IMG/VR virus record: IMGVR_UViG_3300028392_002123
Origin: a virus
Lineage: Duplodnaviria > Caudoviricetes
Strand: one strand, 5' to 3'
Length of the DNA stretch: 64,000 nucleotides
Shown: positions 2,184 to 50,037 of the stretch, piece by piece
How the letters are laid out: every line of letters begins with the position of its first letter
Position numbering within the stretch: position 1 is the stretch's first letter
Made by a program: the position numbers and the translations under genes
Notes under the pieces: model-generated
Seen by the model: the letters and a program-made list of their open reading frames with translations, nothing else
What the model was told of the DNA's origin: nothing
The model's database searches: none

Positions 2184-4353
2184 CGTTATAAGTTATTTTA
2201 ATGTTAACCCCCGACAGATTTTCAAAGACAATTTTCTTACTCAATGGCTTTTTAATTTTTTCTGCAATAATACGCTTCATAGGTCTTGCACCCATTTTTT
2301 CATCAAAGCCGTCTTCGATAAGTTTCAGTATTGCACCATCATCTAGTTCCAATGAAATATTCTTGGGTTCTAACAATTCGTTAATTTCGTTGATAAATTT
2401 AATTACAATCGGACGAATCATCGGTTTATCAAGTTTATTAAATTCGATGATAGAATCTAATCGATTTCTAAATTCCGGAGTAAAGTGTTTATTAACTGCT
2501 TCGATGCTGGCATTGCTGTTAGTACTGTTATCAAAGCCAATTTTATTTCTTTCACCTTCTCTTGCGCCCAAGTTAGAAGTTAGGATTAAAATAATGTTTC
2601 TGCAACTAACAGTTTTTCCACTGCTACTGGTCAGCATACCATTGTCCATAATGCCCAATAAGATATTAAGCACATCAGGGTGAGCTTTTTCAACCTCGTC
2701 TAAGAGCAATACAGCATTGGGTGTTTGTTCTAAGTCATTGATTAATTTGCCTGCGCCGCTGCCGCCTTCACCGTAGCCCACATAGCCAGGAGGTGCACCA
2801 ATCAAGCTGGCAACTTTATGACTTTCTATGTATTCACTCATGTCATAGCGTAATAGTTCCATGCCCAATACATTGGCCAGTTGTTGCGCTAGTTCAGTTT
2901 TACCAACACCTGTTGGACCAACAAACAAATAACTTCCCAAGGGTTTGGTTAGCTCCTTTAAACCTGCTTTACTGATATAAACAGCATCTAATAGTTTTTC
3001 CACGGCCTTGTCCTGCCCGAAAACTTTGGTCTTAATGTCGTGTTCATAGTTCACCGGCTTGTATTCGTTGAGCACTTCCATTTGTTCGATGGGTACCCTG
3101 GCTTGTTCGCTTACTTCTTTCTTGACCTGGTCAACAGTTAGGAATTTATCTAAGGCATCTATTTTTATCTTGGCCATGGCACTATCTAAAACATCCAGTG
3201 CTTTATCGGGCAAATATTTGTCGTGCATGTGTTTAACAGTTAAATCCACACAGGCATCGATGGCCAGGGTATCTACTTCAACTCCATGATAAAATTCATA
3301 TTGATGAATACTGCAATGTAGCATATTTTTACAGTCTTCAGGACTCATTTCATCTATGTCTAATTTAGTAAAACGACGAGCCAACGCACGATCCGGTTCA
3401 ATTGATTCCCTGTATTCTTCATAGGTAGTACTGCCAATGATTTGAATTTTTCCCTTGGTTAATGCTGGTTTGATCAAGTTTGCCATGTCTGTACTGCTTG
3501 ATCCTGCGGCACCTGCGCCAACAATGGTGTGTATTTCGTCAATGAATAAAATGACATTGTCTCTATTTTCTAGTATATCAAATACTTGTTTGACACGTTC
3601 TTCAAAATCTCCTCGATACTTAGTACCGGCCATTAATGCGCCCATGTCTAGATTATAGATAATATGTTCTTTAATTGTACCAGGAACATCATCTTCAACG
3701 ATACGTCTAGCCAAGCCTTCAACAATGGCAGTTTTACCTACCCCTGGATCTCCTACTAGGATTGCATTTTTCTTTTTACGTCTAGCTAGAATTTGTACAA
3801 GTTTTTCAACTTCCTCACTGCGGCCGATCAGCATGTCTATTTCTCCTGCTTCGGCATCTTTGTTTAAATTGATACAATATTCTTCTAGAACTTTTTCTTC
3901 TAATTTAGATTTTTTAGTTTCCACACGTTCCATTTTACCAATACTTTCCAGGAAAGTGTCTTTGGTAACGCCGTGTTCGTGCAGATAAAAATATGCATGA
4001 CTATGTTTTTCACTGAGAATACTTAACAGCATATCAGGCGGACTAATAGAAGCTCTTCCATTAAAAATAGCCTGGGTAAACGCACGATTGAATGAGCGTT
4101 CTAACGTCTGTGTTTTTCTGGGTTTAGTCAGTCCTGGGACAACTAGATCCTCAATGCCTTCTAAGAAATTTGTCAAGTCTTCTACTATTGGTTCTGGGGC
4201 AACGCTCATGACTGACAATGACTCTTGGATATCTTTGTGTTCTAATAGAACCAAAGTTAAATGTTCCAAAGTAACATATTCGTGTTCTTTGTTTAATGCC
4301 AAGCGAAATGCTTTTTCGACAATTTCGTTAATTTGTTGTTTATCTTCTTCCAT
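2161..4353 (-). CDS. clpA: ATP-dependent Clp protease ATPase subunit ClpA
   Basis: Clp N-domain; two AAA modules with Walker A GDPGVGKT and GPTGVGKT, Walker B LFIDEIH and LLLDEVEKAHPDV; FTPEFRNRLD and MGARPM motifs; no ClpB middle domain. Confidence 0.93.
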   Translation of the reverse strand: MEEDKQQINEIVEKAFRLALNKEHEYVTLEHLTLVLLEHKDIQESLSVMSVAPEPIVEDLTNFLEGIEDLVVPGLTKPRKTQTLERSFNRAFTQAIFNGRASISPPDMLLSILSEKHSHAYFYLHEHGVTKDTFLESIGKMERVETKKSKLEEKVLEEYCINLNKDAEAGEIDMLIGRSEEVEKLVQILARRKKKNAILVGDPGVGKTAIVEGLARRIVEDDVPGTIKEHIIYNLDMGALMAGTKYRGDFEERVKQVFDILENRDNVILFIDEIHTIVGAGAAGSSSTDMANLIKPALTKGKIQIIGSTTYEEYRESIEPDRALARRFTKLDIDEMSPEDCKNMLHCSIHQYEFYHGVEVDTLAIDACVDLTVKHMHDKYLPDKALDVLDSAMAKIKIDALDKFLTVDQVKKEVSEQARVPIEQMEVLNEYKPVNYEHDIKTKVFGQDKAVEKLLDAVYISKAGLKELTKPLGSYLFVGPTGVGKTELAQQLANVLGMELLRYDMSEYIESHKVASLIGAPPGYVGYGEGGSGAGKLINDLEQTPNAVLLLDEVEKAHPDVLNILLGIMDNGMLTSSSGKTVSCRNIILILTSNLGAREGERNKIGFDNSTNSNASIEAVNKHFTPEFRNRLDSIIEFNKLDKPMIRPIVIKFINEINELLEPKNISLELDDGAILKLIEDGFDEKMGARPMKRIIAEKIKKPLSKKIVFENLSGVNIKITYNGEDYEFQ

Positions 4354-5889: not shown

Positions 5890-6397
5890 TACCTTTTGCG
5901 GCTTCGTCGTCGTTTAAGTTTTCGTCATAGGCATTGGATACATCTTCCATGTCTACTTTTCCGCTACTTGTATCTACTTTGTCGGTTTGCATTTCGTCTA
6001 CAAAGTGACGTGGCATAGTTATTTTAACAACCCATACAGGAGCTTCTAAAATCTTAGCTTTTAATCTGCCGCGGTCATCTACTTCGTAGTCGTCATCGCC
6101 TTTAATTTTACCCACGTATTTTAGAATTTCTTTGCCGTACCAAACTTTACAGCCGTGGTCAACGAGACGTTCAGCACCTGCAGGATCTGGCATCATTTTG
6201 TAGGGATACATTAGTGTAACAGTGATCCAATATCTGTCAATTTTTGGACCATCGACAATTTCGCCTTTTAGCCAATTGTCAAATACATAAAGATCTAAAT
6301 TATCTAATGTACGCTCAAATTCCATGAGAATGTCCAAGACATTATCACTGCTAAAAGCCGTGTCCAAAGTGGTATATATTGTGTCGATATCAATCAT
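5855..6397 (-). CDS. Hypothetical protein of a type recurrent in jumbo myoviruses
   Basis: 180 aa ORF (DILMEFERTLDNLDLYVF.NW..GE.VDGP..RYW); TAAATA 5 nt before the ATG. Confidence 0.65.
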   Translation of the reverse strand: MIDIDTIYTTLDTAFSSDNVLDILMEFERTLDNLDLYVFDNWLKGEIVDGPKIDRYWITVTLMYPYKMMPDPAGAERLVDHGCKVWYGKEILKYVGKIKGDDDYEVDDRGRLKAKILEAPVWVVKITMPRHFVDEMQTDKVDTSSGKVDMEDVSNAYDENLNDDEAAKGNANDENKEQQT

Positions 6398-6421
6398 GCA
6401 TATATTTAGCCGCAGATTTAA

Positions 6422-8044
6422 TTATCTTACTGTGGACTTTAATCTAGGATAAACCGCCCCAGTTGCGGGTCTAGTGCCATAGTTTTGTTTAGGAAATGTA
6501 GCACCTATACGTGTTGACGATAATAAATTGTAGATTATATCCGCTCTTGGGCTACCCAAACCTGTGGCCGCATCCCAGCCTGTTGTGGCCGCATAGCCAT
6601 TAACGCTACCTAAACCATGCCATGAATAGTTATTATAGCCCGTAGTAATATCTGTTACTGTATTGCTATTTCCATATAATAAAGTCATTAATTCACCGAA
6701 CTGTATTCTTCTTCCTAACAATTGATTTAATCTAGCAAATACTCCAGCAAGAAATGGCGCAGCCGCGCTGGTACCGCCATTTTGATTTAAACTTCCATTT
6801 ACATAAAAAGTATATCCAGTATAAGGATCTGCAGGTGCTGATATATCTGGAACACCTCTTCTGGTAACTACTGTGGGACTGCCTGTTTGTCCAGATTTAT
6901 TATATGTTGTGTAATATAAAGTAGGACTTGCTTGCCAAGTTGGCCTAGAGCTATAAGTGCTGATACCACCACCGCTGCCAGACCATACAGTTTCTGTGTT
7001 TAATGTGTTATCATTATTTAAAAAAATACTGGTCCCGCCGCTGGCAATTACATACTGACTACTAGCGGGATATTCTGCCTGCCAATTATTCCCGCCATCA
7101 TCGCCCGAGGAAAAAAATGTTAAAATACCTTTAGCAATACAAGACTGAAATGGCACGGCCAGATAGTCGCTGATATCTCCACCATATCCCCAGCTAACAG
7201 TTAACACACTGGGATTGTTTACATTGTCATTGGCAATGGCATTTACCATGTCGTAGAAACCTTGACTAGTATTCGGAGCATAATAAACTACTATTTTTGC
7301 TTTTGGCGCAACGGCGCCTGCACAATAAATATCCATCATTGTTTCAGCATCGCTGACTGTGGTAAATGTTGCACCATCTACAGAATAGTTTGTAACTGTG
7401 GGAGGTGTTAGTCCTACTTGTGTAAATGTTCTATTCACATCGGATTGATTCCATCCGCTACCTTGGAATTCTATGATTGCAATAGTTTGGCCTGCGCCGT
7501 CCCCTGCAGGAACTCGATATGCAGTGGCAACTTGAAGCGGGGTCACTGGATATTTGCTAGGATACGTGTTTGGAGCCGGACTAGGATCTGCATCACTGAC
7601 AGAAAAATTTCTAATTCTTGGTTGTACAGTAAGAGATTCATCAAATCCTAATACTAATTCTACAACAGCATCGATTTCTAAGGGAACAGTTATAGTGTCT
7701 TCATGAGTAAGATATGTTCTTGGACCATCGGTGACTGTTAATAATTGAATTTTGAAAAATGTATTGAACTGTTTAACACTACCTTCTATTTTCACCACAG
7801 CCATACCTTTATCGGATTCAACAACCAGTAATAAATTAGACCTTGCCCACTGCTCTACTAATTCAATTTCATCTTCAAGCGCACCAAATTGATAAACATA
7901 TTGATCATGATCTAATACCGGCTGTGTACCTGCAATAACACCGTCTGTATATTCTTTAAGAGTCATTCCGTTTTCATGTTTATCCCTTCGAAGATACACA
8001 CTGATAATTATTTTTTCATTTAAGTCTGCTAGAATAGATTGCAC
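6422..8044 (-). CDS. S53 family serine-carboxyl peptidase (sedolisin/kumamolisin-like) with pro-domain
   Basis: Catalytic motifs ETMMD (Glu/Asp), SSGDDG (oxyanion Asp), GGTSAAAP (Ser); RGVPDISA; GWDAATGLGSP calcium-binding region. Confidence 0.9.
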   Translation of the reverse strand: MQSILADLNEKIIISVYLRRDKHENGMTLKEYTDGVIAGTQPVLDHDQYVYQFGALEDEIELVEQWARSNLLLVVESDKGMAVVKIEGSVKQFNTFFKIQLLTVTDGPRTYLTHEDTITVPLEIDAVVELVLGFDESLTVQPRIRNFSVSDADPSPAPNTYPSKYPVTPLQVATAYRVPAGDGAGQTIAIIEFQGSGWNQSDVNRTFTQVGLTPPTVTNYSVDGATFTTVSDAETMMDIYCAGAVAPKAKIVVYYAPNTSQGFYDMVNAIANDNVNNPSVLTVSWGYGGDISDYLAVPFQSCIAKGILTFFSSGDDGGNNWQAEYPASSQYVIASGGTSIFLNNDNTLNTETVWSGSGGGISTYSSRPTWQASPTLYYTTYNKSGQTGSPTVVTRRGVPDISAPADPYTGYTFYVNGSLNQNGGTSAAAPFLAGVFARLNQLLGRRIQFGELMTLLYGNSNTVTDITTGYNNYSWHGLGSVNGYAATTGWDAATGLGSPRADIIYNLLSSTRIGATFPKQNYGTRPATGAVYPRLKSTVR

Positions 8045-8045
8045 A

Positions 8046-10049
8046 TTAAGCCTCTAATGGTAGGTATGTTATTGCCACTGTAATAGCAGTAGTGCTATTG
8101 CTGTTGTTGGTAATTTTTAAATATGCACTAGCGTTTGGTATTGGGTCATTGTTAAACCCTATTACAGCTGGAGTGAAATATGTTGTAGTAGCTGTCGTTG
8201 AAATTGTTTCTGCTAGAACACCACTACCTGGAGTTGGATCTGTTGATATAGTTCTACTAGCATCTGCTGTTCTTGCGGCTAGACTAGAATATACAGTGAC
8301 CCATGCCCCAGCAGTGACTTGTATGCTATACAAAGCATAACCAGTGGCAGCGGTCACTAATGTACTATAACTGGCTCCAGGAGCAAGACTTGGTGAGGCA
8401 TACGACACAGTTCTTCTACTTAATAAGTTATTTGAACGAGTAGTATTAACCCATTGCTGTGTATTGCCGTTGTATGTTAAATATTGTCCATCGGCTACTT
8501 GTGTAAGTGTTACATCTAATAATTCATCTAATACTGATGGAATAGTTGGTTTATTTGTTAAGTTATTGTAATTAATACCAGCTGTTGGACTGCTAAATGT
8601 AATTCCGCCAGTTGAGTCACCACCAAGTACAACTGTAGATCCTGCCGCACCCATTATGTGTACATCGCCGGTGCTAGCAATTTGAATTCCACTACTACCA
8701 ATGGTTATGTTTTGCGCCGCAACTTGTCCAAACGATACTGTAGTATCATCCTTGAGAATAAAGAAATCGCCTGGCGCAAGTTTTGATGTATCTGCAACAA
8801 CCGGTTTATTGCTTAAATTATTATAATCTGTTGTTCCTGCAGGACCAGCATCACCTGTATCTCCTTTTGCGCCAGTGGCTCCTTGTGGGCCAGCAGGTCC
8901 TTGAATACCTTGTGGGCCAGTATTACCTGTATCCCCTTTTGGACCAATATCGCCTCGATCTCCTTTTGGACCAATATCGCCTTGATCGCCTTTTGGCCCA
9001 GTATCTCCCTTGTCACCTTTGAGGCCTTGCTCACCTCGCGGCCCGGCAACGCCTTGTGGACCTGGAGCTCCTTGAACACCAGTTGCACCAGTTGCACCAG
9101 TATCACCTTTTTGTCCTGTTACAGGGCCAACATCTGCCCATAAAGTTCCAGTCCATATCCATACATGTCCATTATATTCTGCAATGTATGCATCACCTAT
9201 AGCACCAGTATATGAATGATTTAAATTAGTGTAATCATATACAACACCCACTAATCTAGCAAATACTGCTTGTTGACCTTGTTCGCCACGTGGACCTGTG
9301 TCCCCTTGAGGCCCACGTTCTCCTTGTATGCCTCGAGGTCCTTGAATACCCTGCGGGCCCTGAGCACCATCTGCTCCAGCTGTACCCCTAGCACCGGCAA
9401 CTCCGCGTGGTCCCGGAGCTCCTTGGGGACCTTGCGGGCCGCGTGGCCCTTGTGCGCTGGCACTCCAGTGTAGATTTCCCCGGCCGTCGGTTGTTAGTAT
9501 ATTACCAGGCGAACCTCCGCCCAATCCAAGCATAGAAGCATCGTCGATGATAACACGACCCTGTGGATTTAAATATATATTACCATTGTCAAAGCTTTTT
9601 ATTACATTAATTTCTAATTCGCCGCCGGGCGCAATAGCCGCACGTCCTATTAGTCCATTGCCGTCATTGACTCCAAATACTAATCTGGATCTAATCATAC
9701 CCGGTCTGTCAGGATTATAACTGTCTAACAAAGGAGCTTCTATTTCATCGATAAATGTGGAAATAAAAGAAGCGCCTAGATATTGATGGCCATCAAAACC
9801 TTTGGTTATATATGAAGAAATAACATCGTTGGGTTCTAGTATTTTTGGATTGCCAATAGTTCCCCTGCTTCTCTTAGTCAATAAGGTTGCGCCTGTAGTT
9901 ATATTATCATCTATGCTTATAGTACTAACTAATGCGCCGGTACTGACGTCCCATTTTAACTCAGAATTAGCATTTTTTGACGGCGATAAATCTGTACCGT
10001 TATTAGCATACCAGCTTAGATCGCCCATAGTTCCGTTATAAATTGTCAC
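8046..10049 (-). CDS. Collagen-like (Gly-X-Y) fibre protein
   Basis: Two long G-X-Y tracts separated by a GDAY...HVWIWTG..W.DVG domain; YNNL(S/T)NKP motifs; GTG start. Confidence 0.85.
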   Translation of the reverse strand: MTIYNGTMGDLSWYANNGTDLSPSKNANSELKWDVSTGALVSTISIDDNITTGATLLTKRSRGTIGNPKILEPNDVISSYITKGFDGHQYLGASFISTFIDEIEAPLLDSYNPDRPGMIRSRLVFGVNDGNGLIGRAAIAPGGELEINVIKSFDNGNIYLNPQGRVIIDDASMLGLGGGSPGNILTTDGRGNLHWSASAQGPRGPQGPQGAPGPRGVAGARGTAGADGAQGPQGIQGPRGIQGERGPQGDTGPRGEQGQQAVFARLVGVVYDYTNLNHSYTGAIGDAYIAEYNGHVWIWTGTLWADVGPVTGQKGDTGATGATGVQGAPGPQGVAGPRGEQGLKGDKGDTGPKGDQGDIGPKGDRGDIGPKGDTGNTGPQGIQGPAGPQGATGAKGDTGDAGPAGTTDYNNLSNKPVVADTSKLAPGDFFILKDDTTVSFGQVAAQNITIGSSGIQIASTGDVHIMGAAGSTVVLGGDSTGGITFSSPTAGINYNNLTNKPTIPSVLDELLDVTLTQVADGQYLTYNGNTQQWVNTTRSNNLLSRRTVSYASPSLAPGASYSTLVTAATGYALYSIQVTAGAWVTVYSSLAARTADASRTISTDPTPGSGVLAETISTTATTTYFTPAVIGFNNDPIPNASAYLKITNNSNSTTAITVAITYLPLEA
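8935..9010 (-). repeat. 27-bp-period tandem repeat encoding GPKGD(Q/R/T)GD(I/T)
   Basis: Repeated ggaccaatatcgcc units in the collagen tract. Confidence 0.7.
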
Positions 10050-42603: not shown

Positions 42604-42679
42604 TGGTTGCGGGTGAAGGATTCGAACCTCCGTCCTCCAGGTTATGAGCCTGACAGTCTGACCACTGACGTAACCCGCG
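42604..42679 (-). tRNA. tRNA-fMet (CAU), initiator type
   Basis: 76 nt cloverleaf CGCGGGU...ACCCGCAACCA; C1:A72 mismatch, G11:C24, loop CUCAUAA, encoded CCA. Confidence 0.9.
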
Positions 42680-42688
42680 GTATGCTAT

Positions 42689-43258
42689 TTATAGTAAGCC
42701 TTCTTGCGTTAATATTTGTACAGTACGATCGCTGAGTGCAATCTCTGTGCGTACATTTAACTCAAGCAATTCGTCTTGCAATTTTTGTTTAGATTTTTTT
42801 ACTAAACTGACCAAGATTTTAAAACCTTTGATATCTTCTTCTTGGAAGATACTGGTAGAAACTGTGTTTTCGAAGCCGTAGATACTGCGACTGTCTTCTT
42901 TACGATTTCTAATTTTTGCCAATTTACCTTCGATGTGTGTGGGATCTTCTCGAACTGCCTTGGCCATGAATGCGGTATAACTTTGGATTTGTTTATCCAA
43001 GTGTGCAATGTCTGCCAAGCGCATGTCAACACCCACTTGATTATTGGCCGCACTAGTGGCTTTGCGAATTTCATAGACCGCAGACACCAAAGTGTCTTTA
43101 CGTGCAAGATCTTCTTTGAATTTCATAACTGCTTTGGCTAGTTCTGGTTCAACAGTTTGAAATTCATTGAGACTGACTTCAGTGACCAAATTAATAGACT
43201 TGATCGCGTCATTGATGCTATTTTGCAGTACAGAAGCTTTACGTAAACTAATGTTCAT
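42689..43258 (-). CDS. Hypothetical coiled-coil protein
   Basis: 189 aa; AAGGA SD. Confidence 0.65.
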   Translation of the reverse strand: MNISLRKASVLQNSINDAIKSINLVTEVSLNEFQTVEPELAKAVMKFKEDLARKDTLVSAVYEIRKATSAANNQVGVDMRLADIAHLDKQIQSYTAFMAKAVREDPTHIEGKLAKIRNRKEDSRSIYGFENTVSTSIFQEEDIKGFKILVSLVKKSKQKLQDELLELNVRTEIALSDRTVQILTQEGLL

Positions 43259-47741: not shown

Positions 47742-48590
47742 TTAATAATGAATTCCTTCTGTGGGTATACTAGGATCAAATTCGTAATCCTCGGGAAGTT
47801 CAATAACGCTGTTTCTATCTAATAAGTCAATCATTCCTGCACCGGGTATACCTGATATACGTATCTGTCTACGACGACTTGTAACAACAGGCACTCCGTG
47901 ATAAAAATAATCATTGGTTATATAAACGGGATCATCTGCCAATTTATAATTGACCAATTCTTTGCCGTCTAGTGCCCAATACAACGGAACTCCTCCGTTG
48001 GAAATATTAATATTAAGTGTTATAAAACCTTTTGAAAAAACTTTGTTGACACCTGCACTGGACTTTCCATCATAAAGTCCCTTCATATCCCTGTGAATTG
48101 TTGCCATTCCACCAGGATCTAAATGCACACAATGCATCCAAATTATTTTTTCAAAAGGCAATGTATCTTTTATCCATTTAACTATGGCCAAATCTTTAAA
48201 TTCTTCTTTGACATTAAATGTCAAATCAAAACCTTCATTGCGTAAACTAGGCCCTGCGTATTTTCCCATGGTCAATAACAGCGGATCTGTAATTCCTTTT
48301 GCATCTAACTCAACCAAAGAAGCCATCTTCCATGCTCTTCGATTTTTTGTAATTGTTTTATATGTATTAAAGTTTCCAGGTTGTTGCCAACAATCTACTT
48401 CATCATAGGCTGAATCCGGAGCCATTTGCCAAATACTATTTAATTTCTTAGTTGCAGTCAGTCCATCACACGAATTACATATAGTAACTCCTATAGGAGC
48501 AATATATCGGTCGTACTCATCGATGAATGTATCTTGCTGATTTCCAAAGTCTACATTCAATTTGGCAAATGCAAAATTTTTAAAATACAT
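47742..48590 (-). CDS. 2OG-Fe(II) oxygenase-like protein
   Basis: IHRD...NINI...FYHGV...RRQIR. Confidence 0.55.
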   Translation of the reverse strand: MYFKNFAFAKLNVDFGNQQDTFIDEYDRYIAPIGVTICNSCDGLTATKKLNSIWQMAPDSAYDEVDCWQQPGNFNTYKTITKNRRAWKMASLVELDAKGITDPLLLTMGKYAGPSLRNEGFDLTFNVKEEFKDLAIVKWIKDTLPFEKIIWMHCVHLDPGGMATIHRDMKGLYDGKSSAGVNKVFSKGFITLNINISNGGVPLYWALDGKELVNYKLADDPVYITNDYFYHGVPVVTSRRRQIRISGIPGAGMIDLLDRNSVIELPEDYEFDPSIPTEGIHY

Positions 48591-48599
48591 GTTATCGAT

Positions 48600-48821
48600 G
48601 TTCCTGTTATTAGTTGTCCAGCTACTCGCACCACACGAGCCCTGAACTGAGCAGTTACTCTGTCCACGTATTTCTTCTTTTGGTAAAGGTTAACGTTCCT
48701 CACCCTAGGCAGTTTTCGGTATCCCATATAGCGGGACCGTAAGGTCAGGTCCTAGTGTACCCCCTAGTCTATCGTTCAAGGGACGCTCTTATTATAACGT
48801 AAAAGAGTAAACCGGGTTTCT
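48600..48821 (-). ncRNA. Candidate structured RNA downstream of tRNA-Thr
   Basis: Several nested stems in a 220 nt ORF-free stretch. Confidence 0.45.
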
Positions 48822-48897
48822 TGGTGCCCCCACCATGATTCGAACACGGGACCTACTGATTACAAATCAGTTGCTCTACCAGCTGAGCTATAAGGGC
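48822..48897 (-). tRNA. tRNA-Thr (UGU)
   Basis: Cloverleaf GCCCUUA..., loop UUUGUAA, CCA. Confidence 0.95.
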
Positions 48898-48929
48898 AAT
48901 ATTATTACTTATTTTTGCTATTCAAAATT

Positions 48930-49003
48930 TGGAGCGGGATAGCGGAATCGAACCGCTGACTTGAACTTGGAAGGATCTCGTTTTACCACTAAACTAATCC
49001 CGC
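48930..49003 (-). tRNA. tRNA-Gly (UCC)
   Basis: 74 nt, GCGGGAU..., loop CUUCCAA, CCA; anticodon stem has two mismatches. Confidence 0.85.
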
Positions 49004-49014
49004 ACTAAAAGGGA

Positions 49015-49210
49015 GAAACTACGGTTGCAGGACCTAATGCTCTTTCGAGGAAGTATCCAGGCGATGTAGTTTCAAATTTGAAACCATATAAAAACTCTCT
49101 GCGGCGCTTGAATCCACGGTAGCCCTGCTCTTCATGGCCGGTCCCGGTACATGGTCGACATTGACCGGTGTTTCGGTGTTCCACTGTAGCTACTACAGAA
49201 AGTTTTTATA
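49015..49210 (-). ncRNA. Two closed-stem candidate sRNA modules between tRNA-Leu and tRNA-Gly
   Basis: Terminal inverted repeats GAAACTAC/GTAGTTTC and TATAAAAACT/AGTTTTTATA enclosing GC-rich hairpins. Confidence 0.45.
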
Positions 49211-49294
49211 TGGTGCCCCAGAGGAGACTCGAACTCCTACACCTCTCGATAGTGGCTTCTAAGACCACCGCGTCTACCATTCCGCCACCGGGGC
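49211..49294 (-). tRNA. tRNA-Leu (UAG)
   Basis: 84 nt class II tRNA with variable arm, loop CUUAGAA, CCA. Confidence 0.95.
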
Positions 49295-49340
49295 AAATAC
49301 CAACACAAATTTTTAAAGAACAATTTTTCTACAATAACGT

Positions 49341-49369
49341 ATTATACACAGAAACAGATTTACTGTCAA
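49341..49369 (-). promoter_or_regulatory. Consensus sigma70 promoter TTGACA-N17-TATAAT driving the Leu-Gly-Thr tRNA operon
   Basis: Read directly. Confidence 0.88.
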
Positions 49370-49476
49370 TAAAACAGAATTATCATTTCTTAAAATAAAA
49401 GTATTACAGTGGAAGTCTACAAAAGAATTATTGTAGCAGTTTATTTATCTCTAGTCAATGACTAATCTTGCCAAAT

Positions 49477-50037
49477 TCAAATTAATCTTTGATTGACCAC
49501 ATCCCAATTGATGATGCGCCAAATATTTTCTAGATACTTTTTCTTGTCAGCTTGATAGTCTAGGGCCCAGGCGTGTTCCCACCAATCAATTAACAGTACA
49601 ATTCTATCTGTGTTGCCTGTGATGCTGTGGTTGGCAATGGTCTGTATACGACCTGCGCGATCTAAAAAGATCCAACCACTGCCCTGTATGGCCATGGCCT
49701 TGGCACTGACTTGATCTTTAAATTCATCAAAGCTTTTAAAATTACGAGTGATAAAGTCCTTGGAATTTCCAGTAGGTTGATTGCCGGACTTGGGTGCTTG
49801 TAGCTGTGGAAAGAATATATTGTGCAAGTCTGCACCATTCTTATTGAACTTGGCGTCACCTTCGCCTGAGTTATAACGATCTACATAGGCCTTGGCCAAG
49901 GTGCCGTAGTGATAGTCTAGGGTAGCTTCGCTCATCACGGGTGCCAAGTCTGTTCTTTTATAGGGCAGTTTGTTAAGGCTAAGAGTCAACTTAGTGCCTT
50001 CAACCACCATGATATATCTTCTAATATCGTATTGCAT
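49477..50037 (-). CDS. sod: Fe/Mn superoxide dismutase
   Basis: LPY...LAPVMSE.TLDYH, LHNIFF, GSGW, DWWEHA..LDY; four metal ligands retained. Confidence 0.9.
   Translation of the reverse strand: MQYDIRRYIMVVEGTKLTLSLNKLPYKRTDLAPVMSEATLDYHYGTLAKAYVDRYNSGEGDAKFNKNGADLHNIFFPQLQAPKSGNQPTGNSKDFITRNFKSFDEFKDQVSAKAMAIQGSGWIFLDRAGRIQTIANHSITGNTDRIVLLIDWWEHAWALDYQADKKKYLENIWRIINWDVVNQRLI

Follow-up and report, generated by a model that had tools for sequence, protein, structure and literature searches.

Small stable RNAs other than tRNAs have been known in phage tRNA clusters since species 1 and 2 of T4 (RNAC and RNAD), and their roles are unknown (PMC3014915). Both lie within the T4-type tRNA cluster on the tRNA strand (NC_000866 70908-71171) and start 1 nt past a tRNA CCA. 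To our knowledge, no pseudoknot chain has been described for rnaC or rnaD. Chains of this sort are found in tmRNA (PK1-PK4) and in the upstream pseudoknot domain of the tobamovirus 3' end, where abutting H-type pseudoknots are thought to stack as a rod. In these chains the sequence drifts while the design stays. GOLLD and ROOL RNAs form multimeric cages. They are ornate orphan RNAs (RF01998, RF03087) of phages and prophages, which tend to be positioned beside tRNA genes and are of unknown function (PMC12286853, PMC5737381). Here we describe RNA-1, which joins this known kind, the orphan stable RNAs of phage tRNA clusters. It is a conserved, strand-specific RNA structure that sits within tRNA transcription units independently of its neighbours and was found only in phages.

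We analysed a 64,000-nt stretch of DNA (the window) from an uncultured phage, whose IMG/VR record is 141.7 kb long and about 41% complete. On its minus strand, a 231-nt gap separates tRNA-Thr(tgt) (48822-48897, with an encoded CCA) from the ATG at 48590 of a 282-aa ORF (47742-48590). RNA-1 follows directly on this tRNA and occupies 48615-48821 (minus); we number it as element positions 1-207, where position n is window position 48822-n. The minus-strand order is promoter, tRNA-Leu(tag), a 207-nt GC-rich spacer, tRNA-Gly(tcc), tRNA-Thr(tgt), RNA-1 and the 282-aa ORF. The promoter is of the sigma-70 type (TTGACA-17-TATAAT, 49341-49369, minus), agrees with the consensus at 12 of 12 positions and precedes tRNA-Leu by about 47 nt. 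The transcript carrying RNA-1 likely starts here, and no terminator-like site was found on the minus strand between it and the 282-aa ORF. The initial annotation had described the stretch behind tRNA-Thr as ORF-free and richer in GC than its surroundings, and this was confirmed. It contains just short chance ORFs (56 aa on the minus strand, 42 and 38 aa on the plus strand), the ATG of the 56-aa frame sits in a hairpin strand that is spelt otherwise in relatives, and the GC content is 0.48 compared with 0.35-0.39 in the flanking genes. RNA-1 opens with a near-invariant single-stranded motif, AAACCC (48814-48819, minus; positions 3-8, as judged from alignments), which comes after the tRNA CCA and a short A-rich spacer.

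The first relative was obtained with an exact 20-mer scan. In this locus (L200) the same 207 nt sit between tRNA-Thr(tgt) and tRNA-Gly(tcc) and are 93% identical to the window copy. Ten of the 15 differences make up five compensatory pairs, and two more are wobble-compatible. The alignment of the two loci collapses past position 207, and the last 24 nt of the gap (48591-48614, minus) are private to the window; they form the leader of the next gene, with an RBS (AGGAA, 48601-48605) 10 nt from the ATG. Since RNA-1 ends 24 nt from an RBS-bearing ORF, in the window it is physically also a 5' leader. The adjacent tRNA-Thr is much less alike between the two phages than RNA-1. tRNA-Thr and RNA-1 jointly are 87% identical to L200 over 299 nt and the other shared tRNAs 71-84%, while the protein genes gave no DNA-level match save one 86-nt stretch at 74%.

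A covariance model made from the window and L200 then gave full-length matches in four more giant-phage records, and these exposed an almost invariant 3' end. We scanned for this end with the degenerate motif GCTCNGTNNAGGGCNNNTGTGGTGNNNGTAGCT (24 specified bases). Its matches include at least 119 contigs from IMG/VR and at least 120 from metagenomes, almost all of the latter from lake assemblies, and it matched none of the 185,579 prokaryotic (bacterial and archaeal) species genomes. None of the 50,697 GenBank phage records carried RNA-1, as tRNAs alone were matched. All RNA-1 copies known here come from uncultured phages, and the family was found here only in the tRNA gene clusters of uncultured freshwater giant phages. 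Two other patterns were scanned: GGACCTGACCTTACGGTCCCGC gave no match and ATAGACTAGG..ACCTTA gave 118 chance matches, none of them related. A synteny search through the 282-aa gene found no close relative of it in IMG/VR, and 80 loci sharing a superoxide dismutase gene had neither tRNAs nor RNA-1 beside that gene. Neighbour-gene searches therefore failed to reach the relatives, and the region is mosaic.

RNA-1 is a real, widespread RNA family with a conserved unit of 205-211 nt. A covariance model built from homologues, which the initial annotation had suggested, found homologues with compensatory changes, and the window copy scores 198 bits over the full length with the second model (R2), with every helix able to form. 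Three genomes at least 90% complete contain one copy each; a further one, in a related 316-kb phage (G002) without a canonical RNA-1, is weak and partial. In one locus (L309) there are two copies of different subtypes, 2 kb apart (6242-6451 and 8374-8582).

Folding energy says nothing either way about this RNA, since shuffled sequence reaches a minimum free energy just as good as that of the minus strand (z = -0.09); the plus strand is worse than its shuffles (z = +1.5). A chance fold is ruled out by conservation and covariation, not by energy. Mutual information and visual inspection of the alignment gave us the helices. We used 93 distinct copies with full-length covariance-model matches, which form three interior subtypes and go down to about 52% identity. 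The helices were tested in a MAFFT alignment (A4) and then in an alignment from model R2 (A5). In A5, 84.6% of the structure cells pair, compared with 39-45% when the 3' partners are slid by 1-3 columns. Both sides vary in 44 of the 57 pairs, and the observed values were reached in 0 of 500 column shuffles. A multi-way junction had been proposed for this stretch. The alignments give good support to a different predicted fold, a chain of four abutting H-type pseudoknots followed by a near-invariant 3' module.

Pseudoknot A (48786-48814, minus) is composed of helices S1 (8-11/21-24) and S2 (15-19/32-36). S2 is the CUCUU/AAGAG stem already seen in the initial annotation; across the 93 relatives it is 99% paired, with four to five pair types. 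The window S1 has two standard pairs only, C8-G24 and G9-C23. Read in the register of each sequence, S1 has 2-6 bp in more than 15 combinations, for example CGU/ACG, CGGGC/GCCCG, CGUG/CACG and CGGU/ACCG. Pseudoknot B (48762-48785, minus) is composed of S3 (37-39/47-49, CGU/ACG) and S4 (40-43/57-60, CCCU/AGGG). The S3 pair 37-49 is C-G in 47 sequences and G-C in 44, and the S4 pairs 41-59, 42-58 and 43-57 are 82-98% paired with three to five types. Column counts for S1, S3, S4 and hairpin E of pseudoknot D are lower because the subtypes lie one base out of register.

Pseudoknot C (48705-48761, minus) is formed by S5 (61-63/77-79, GGU/ACC) and S6 (67-71/113-117), and it holds hairpin C inside S6 (positions 83-105, with 83-85/103-105 and 86-90/96-100). 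S5 and S6 are each 99.3% paired and, like S2 and hairpin F of the 3' module, show up to five pair types. Here the initial annotation was partly right. Its CUAGG/CCUAG stem is S6, which covaries in all five pairs on both sides, and its UCCC/GGGA stem is real and belongs to hairpin C, which is 81% paired with covariation in 8 of 8 pairs. Its GACC-UUAC-GGUC hairpin is not kept: ACC 77-79 pairs with GGU 61-63 in S5, and CGG 83-85 pairs with CCG 103-105 instead. In pseudoknot D (48666-48704, minus), the loop of hairpin E (118-124/134-140) pairs through positions 126-129 (ACGU) with 153-156 (ACGU), across an A-rich linker (141-152). Of its pairs, 127-155 forms in 98% of copies and 128-154 in 93%, as U-A/C-G and A-U/G-C types, and the loop helix is spelt UAUAAC/GUUAUG, UGAUA/UAUCA, UGCG/CGCA or ACCUU/AAGGU in relatives.

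Each pseudoknot starts one base after the previous one ends, so the chain could stack continuously into a rod. The four pseudoknots probably form a rigid, nuclease-resistant scaffold in this way. One long-range helix was dropped. A 17-bp pairing of 8-25 with 153-170, which RNAalifold proposed from two sequences and which was used in model R1, has an invariant 3' strand and a 5' strand that varies without compensation, and the local helices S1 and S2 account for the 5' strand.

The 3' module (48615-48665, minus) consists of GGACA, hairpin G, a single A and hairpin F. Hairpin G is GAGU-AACU-GCUC (162-165/170-173). Hairpin F (175-180/201-206 and 183-187/193-197) has an internal loop GG/UAG and a terminal loop UGUGGUG (48629-48635). 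It is the GUUCAG..CUCG/CGAG..CUGGAC stem proposed at the outset, and it is 100% paired in the 93 relatives, with covarying pairs. Nearly all copies read GGACAGAGUAAC-N-GCUCAGU-YU-AGGGC-NNN-UGUGGUG-NNN-GUAGCU-RG-AC over positions 157-206, with 39 invariant columns, and the three NNN pairs always compensate. The outliers vary in their stems: the second copy in L309 has GGGU/ACCC as hairpin G, and another locus (L329) has GUCCGG/CCGGAC as helix F1. The G002 copy is a short, divergent 3' module between tRNA-Ser(gct) and tRNA-His (L328 668-790; G002:C1:221467-221589). Its F1 is GGACGG/CCGUCC and its hairpin G is GAGU/ACUC, and it keeps GACAGAGUA, GGGGC and the UGUGG loop, which reads AUGUGGAAA in full. 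Two shortened copies (L216 9607-9753 and L218 1594-1762) retain pseudoknot D and the 3' module. Since the divergent and the shortened copies all keep the module, it is the conserved core of RNA-1, with the pseudoknot chain as its variable scaffold. The window copy has all the features by which we recognise the family, which are four abutting pseudoknots, GACAGAGUA, hairpin G and hairpin F with the UGUGG loop. One of the two shortened copies has just pseudoknot D and the 3' module behind a coding sequence, and the other is fused to a tRNA fragment.

Several likenesses of the module were rejected. Indels in 141-156 disrupt every reading frame, so none is conserved in RNA-1, and this also disposes of a tag-like frame ending at the invariant UAA (165-167). 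Likenesses to P4 of RNase P (ACAGAA/CCCGGCUUA) and to the ACAGAGA box of U6 we regard as coincidences, as the partners are absent and Rfam gave no match.

RNA-1 was proposed initially as a tRNA-associated phage ncRNA, and this is borne out by its genomic setting. All 121 loci carry tRNA genes (1 to 42 each), and the flanking tRNAs are always on the RNA-1 strand. The 3' end of a tRNA lies 165-171 nt upstream of the 3' motif in about 50 loci, which places the start of RNA-1 2-7 nt past the CCA. The upstream neighbours are 12 tRNA species, the commonest being tRNA-Thr(tgt) in 29 loci, and about 50 loci have no tRNA in the 400 nt upstream of RNA-1. In about 32 loci the stop codon of a gene for a 191-aa coiled-coil protein lies 0-5 nt ahead of RNA-1. 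The window has a homologue of this gene, a 189-aa coiled-coil ORF (42689-43258, minus) for which neither Pfam nor PHROGs gave a family. Here it stands directly before tRNA-Met (42604-42679) and not before RNA-1, which means that RNA-1 has moved within the tRNA region. Downstream of RNA-1, at a distance of 10 to 250 nt, 41 loci have tRNA-Gly(tcc) and 40 have tRNA-Met(cat); the gap is filled with other RNA modules, and elsewhere an ORF comes next. In several loci the next tRNA begins 10-16 nt past RNA-1.

These varied neighbours tie RNA-1 to tRNA operons and not to any one gene. RNA-1 had been suggested to be a cis-regulator of the 47742-48590 gene, which was labelled an oxygenase. Sequence searches of Pfam, PHROGs and PDB gave no support to this label. 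Nor is the regulation supported, since the downstream neighbours vary: tRNA-Gly(tcc), tRNA-Met(cat) or other RNA modules come after RNA-1 in relatives, the 282-aa gene is itself without a close relative in IMG/VR, and the conserved part stops 24 nt short of its ATG. The 24-nt leader of the 282-aa gene is not conserved, and RNA-1 has no tie to this gene. The coiled-coil protein was considered as a partner of RNA-1. Its gene was not found in the near-complete RNA-1 genomes G032-G034 and is present in records without RNA-1, so it is not obligate, and our search for partner proteins found none. A link to Ro and Y RNAs was also rejected: the 141.7-kb record (41% complete) contains no TROVE (Ro) domain, and the matches to YrlA, a Y RNA-like family (E 0.34 and 0.016), fall on tRNA genes and not on RNA-1.

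We compared RNA-1 with the known families. Rfam 15 at gathering thresholds gave nine tRNAs and nothing else. With cmscan against Rfam 15, there was nothing on RNA-1 in the window (48300-49500, E <= 10), and the loci of seven relatives gave tRNA and chance matches (E <= 1). The manA motif, offered in the initial annotation as an example of such an RNA, is among the families that found no match in the window or the seven relatives, and the comparison with GOLLD and ROOL that the annotation suggested gave no match on the stretch either. RNA-1 is uncatalogued in that no Rfam 15 family matches it, and it may or may not be among the 10,006 candidates in a 2023 catalogue of viral RNAs from IMG/VR (PMC10690425).

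In position, T4 RNAC and RNAD are the nearest analogues of RNA-1, since RNA-1 too lies within a phage tRNA cluster, on the tRNA strand, and abuts the 3' end of a tRNA. However, the T4 RNAs are shorter (139 and 119 nt), and rnaC ends with a T-arm and rnaD with CCA, while RNA-1 has neither. Homology between them and RNA-1 was not detected: models R1 and R2, run without filters on NC_000866 68000-76000, gave a best score of 7.7 bits, which lies outside rnaC and rnaD. GOLLD and ROOL are three to four times the size of RNA-1 (500-800 nt compared with 205-211 nt) and have other folds. The tmRNA and tobamovirus chains are alike in their abutting pseudoknots, but RNA-1 has no tRNA-like domain: the T-arm, T-loop and CCA of tmRNA are missing from its 3' module. 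ARAGORN found no tmRNA in the window or L200. With the T-box bulge (UGGN) and L15 of RNase P (GGU), RNA-1 has an exposed UGGU in common, which is four bases only. It lacks T-box Stem I, the specifier and the terminator/antiterminator pair as well as the conserved regions of RNase P. Neither family was matched by RNA-1 in Rfam, no terminator was found past hairpin F, and the downstream genes are varied.

On balance, we favour the reading that RNA-1 is a free-standing gene for a stable structured ncRNA of about 205 nt, which would be cut from the tRNA operon transcript and probably acts in trans through its 3' module. Its processing, its action in trans and its partner are what we infer. RNA-1 would be transcribed within the phage tRNA operon, in the order promoter, tRNA-Leu, a second structured RNA, tRNA-Gly, tRNA-Thr and RNA-1. 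Host tRNA-maturation nucleases may free its 5' side by cutting the A-rich spacer after the CCA, and the 3' side may be cut after hairpin F, or at the next tRNA or the next module. The compact fold would let the released RNA persist, and the 3' module would be its working end, binding a conserved partner in trans.

Another explanation is that RNA-1 works in cis as an element of the operon, either as a structured 5' cap or insulator which, once the upstream tRNA has been removed, shields the downstream RNA (mRNA in the window, tRNAs in other loci) from 5'-end-dependent decay, or by organising the processing of the precursor. RNA-1 is always inside tRNA transcription units, often first and right after a protein gene, and in the window it stops 24 nt before the ATG of an RBS-bearing leader. 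In addition, the long AU-rich closing stems of adjoining modules resemble RNase III sites. However, a stabiliser or spacer needs neither about 50 near-invariant nucleotides nor a fixed four-pseudoknot design at about 52% identity, and the tRNAs that follow 10-16 nt downstream in several loci need no such cap. We consider the cis role unlikely.

The complex fold and the many invariant unpaired nucleotides could also belong to a ligand- or tRNA-sensing regulator, similar to a riboswitch or T-box, which governs downstream transcription or processing, and the UGGU loop is reminiscent of the T-box bulge. A regulator of this kind seems distinctly improbable to us. No expression platform is conserved, and the invariant hairpin F has no U-tract behind it here; the tail of F contributes, in relatives, the 5' strand to the stem of the module that follows. 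The downstream genes are of mixed kinds, and a candidate switch between an alternative helix (158-160/175-177) and F1 was rejected since it is uncompensated in the G002 copy. A catalytic role, by self-cleavage or in another way, in trimming the operon transcript, for example to free the 3' end of the upstream tRNA, would suit the nested pseudoknots with invariant unpaired bases and the start a few bases past the CCA of many tRNAs. Nevertheless, no Rfam ribozyme family matches, the spacer after the CCA varies from 2 to 7 nt, about half of the copies have no upstream tRNA and the most conserved part is the far 3' end, which makes catalysis very unlikely. Conservation at the DNA level, as a site of recombination or homing or as a mobile segment that was transferred recently, would explain why the window and L200 agree far better in the RNA-1 block than in the DNA around it and why the block lies at different places of the tRNA region between phages, but it is hardly credible, since the changes are overwhelmingly compensatory on one strand (plus strand z = +1.5), the orientation of RNA-1 always agrees with that of the tRNAs, and G-U is tolerated (22-36 G-U against G-C cells in several pairs), which is sensible for a minus-strand RNA only.

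For RNA-1 as a stable RNA acting in trans, the leading guess for the partner is the single-stranded ACCA-3' of tRNAs, which is complementary to the UGGU of the hairpin F loop; we put it forward as a rather doubtful one. An NCCA end of tRNA pairs with UGGN in T-box antiterminators and with GGU in L15 of RNase P. In RNA-1 loci, 1095 of the 1118 distinct tRNAs encode CCA and 688 end in ACCA. The full proposal, on which we would place little weight, is a trans-acting reader of tRNA 3' ends, where UGGU docks the free ACCA-3' of deacylated or new tRNAs and the pseudoknot rod serves as a handle. Its base is four complementary bases in a 7-nt loop, and the G002 copy has AUGUGGAAA instead. If true, such a reader would enable the phage to sense, shield or escort the many tRNAs of its own, for instance against host enzymes that attack tRNA ends, and RNA-1 would be the first viral RNA to read tRNA 3' ends in trans.

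With hundreds of natural variants, the RNA-1 family offers a better handle on the question which dates from the T4 era. Covariation resolves its secondary structure with the four pseudoknots and sets the variable scaffold clearly apart from the invariant 50-nt end, and the shortened and divergent natural copies show which part is indispensable. The family is confined to phages and common in lake viromes. Since further modular RNAs are present in the same operons, it seems that the tRNAs of giant freshwater phages come with a whole set of structured RNAs.

One of these modules lies in the window, in the spacer between tRNA-Leu(tag) and tRNA-Gly(tcc). This second conserved structured RNA (RNA-2; 49087-49210, minus) is about 125 nt long. 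It is closed by an AU-rich stem of 16 bp (z = -1.95) and contains a T-loop-like GUG-GAUUCAAG-CGC. BLAST found it in 26 of the other loci, where it mostly follows RNA-1 directly. One variant, about 145 nt long, ends with a canonical T-arm (UUGGUUCGAUUCCAA), like T4 rnaC. The remaining gap between RNA-2 and tRNA-Gly (49004-49075, minus) is occupied by a hairpin, GAAACUAC...GUAGUUUC. Between RNA-1 and the next tRNA, we observed at least three more module types in relatives, RNA-3 (about 100 nt), RNA-4 (about 125 nt) and RNA-5 (about 116 nt). They are located at 4005-4097 (minus) in L200 and downstream of RNA-1 in L233, L299, L243, L262 and L277, and their combinations differ. Each of the three is closed by an AU-rich stem, ACUUUAUWAAA...UUUWAUAAAGU, similar to RNase III sites.
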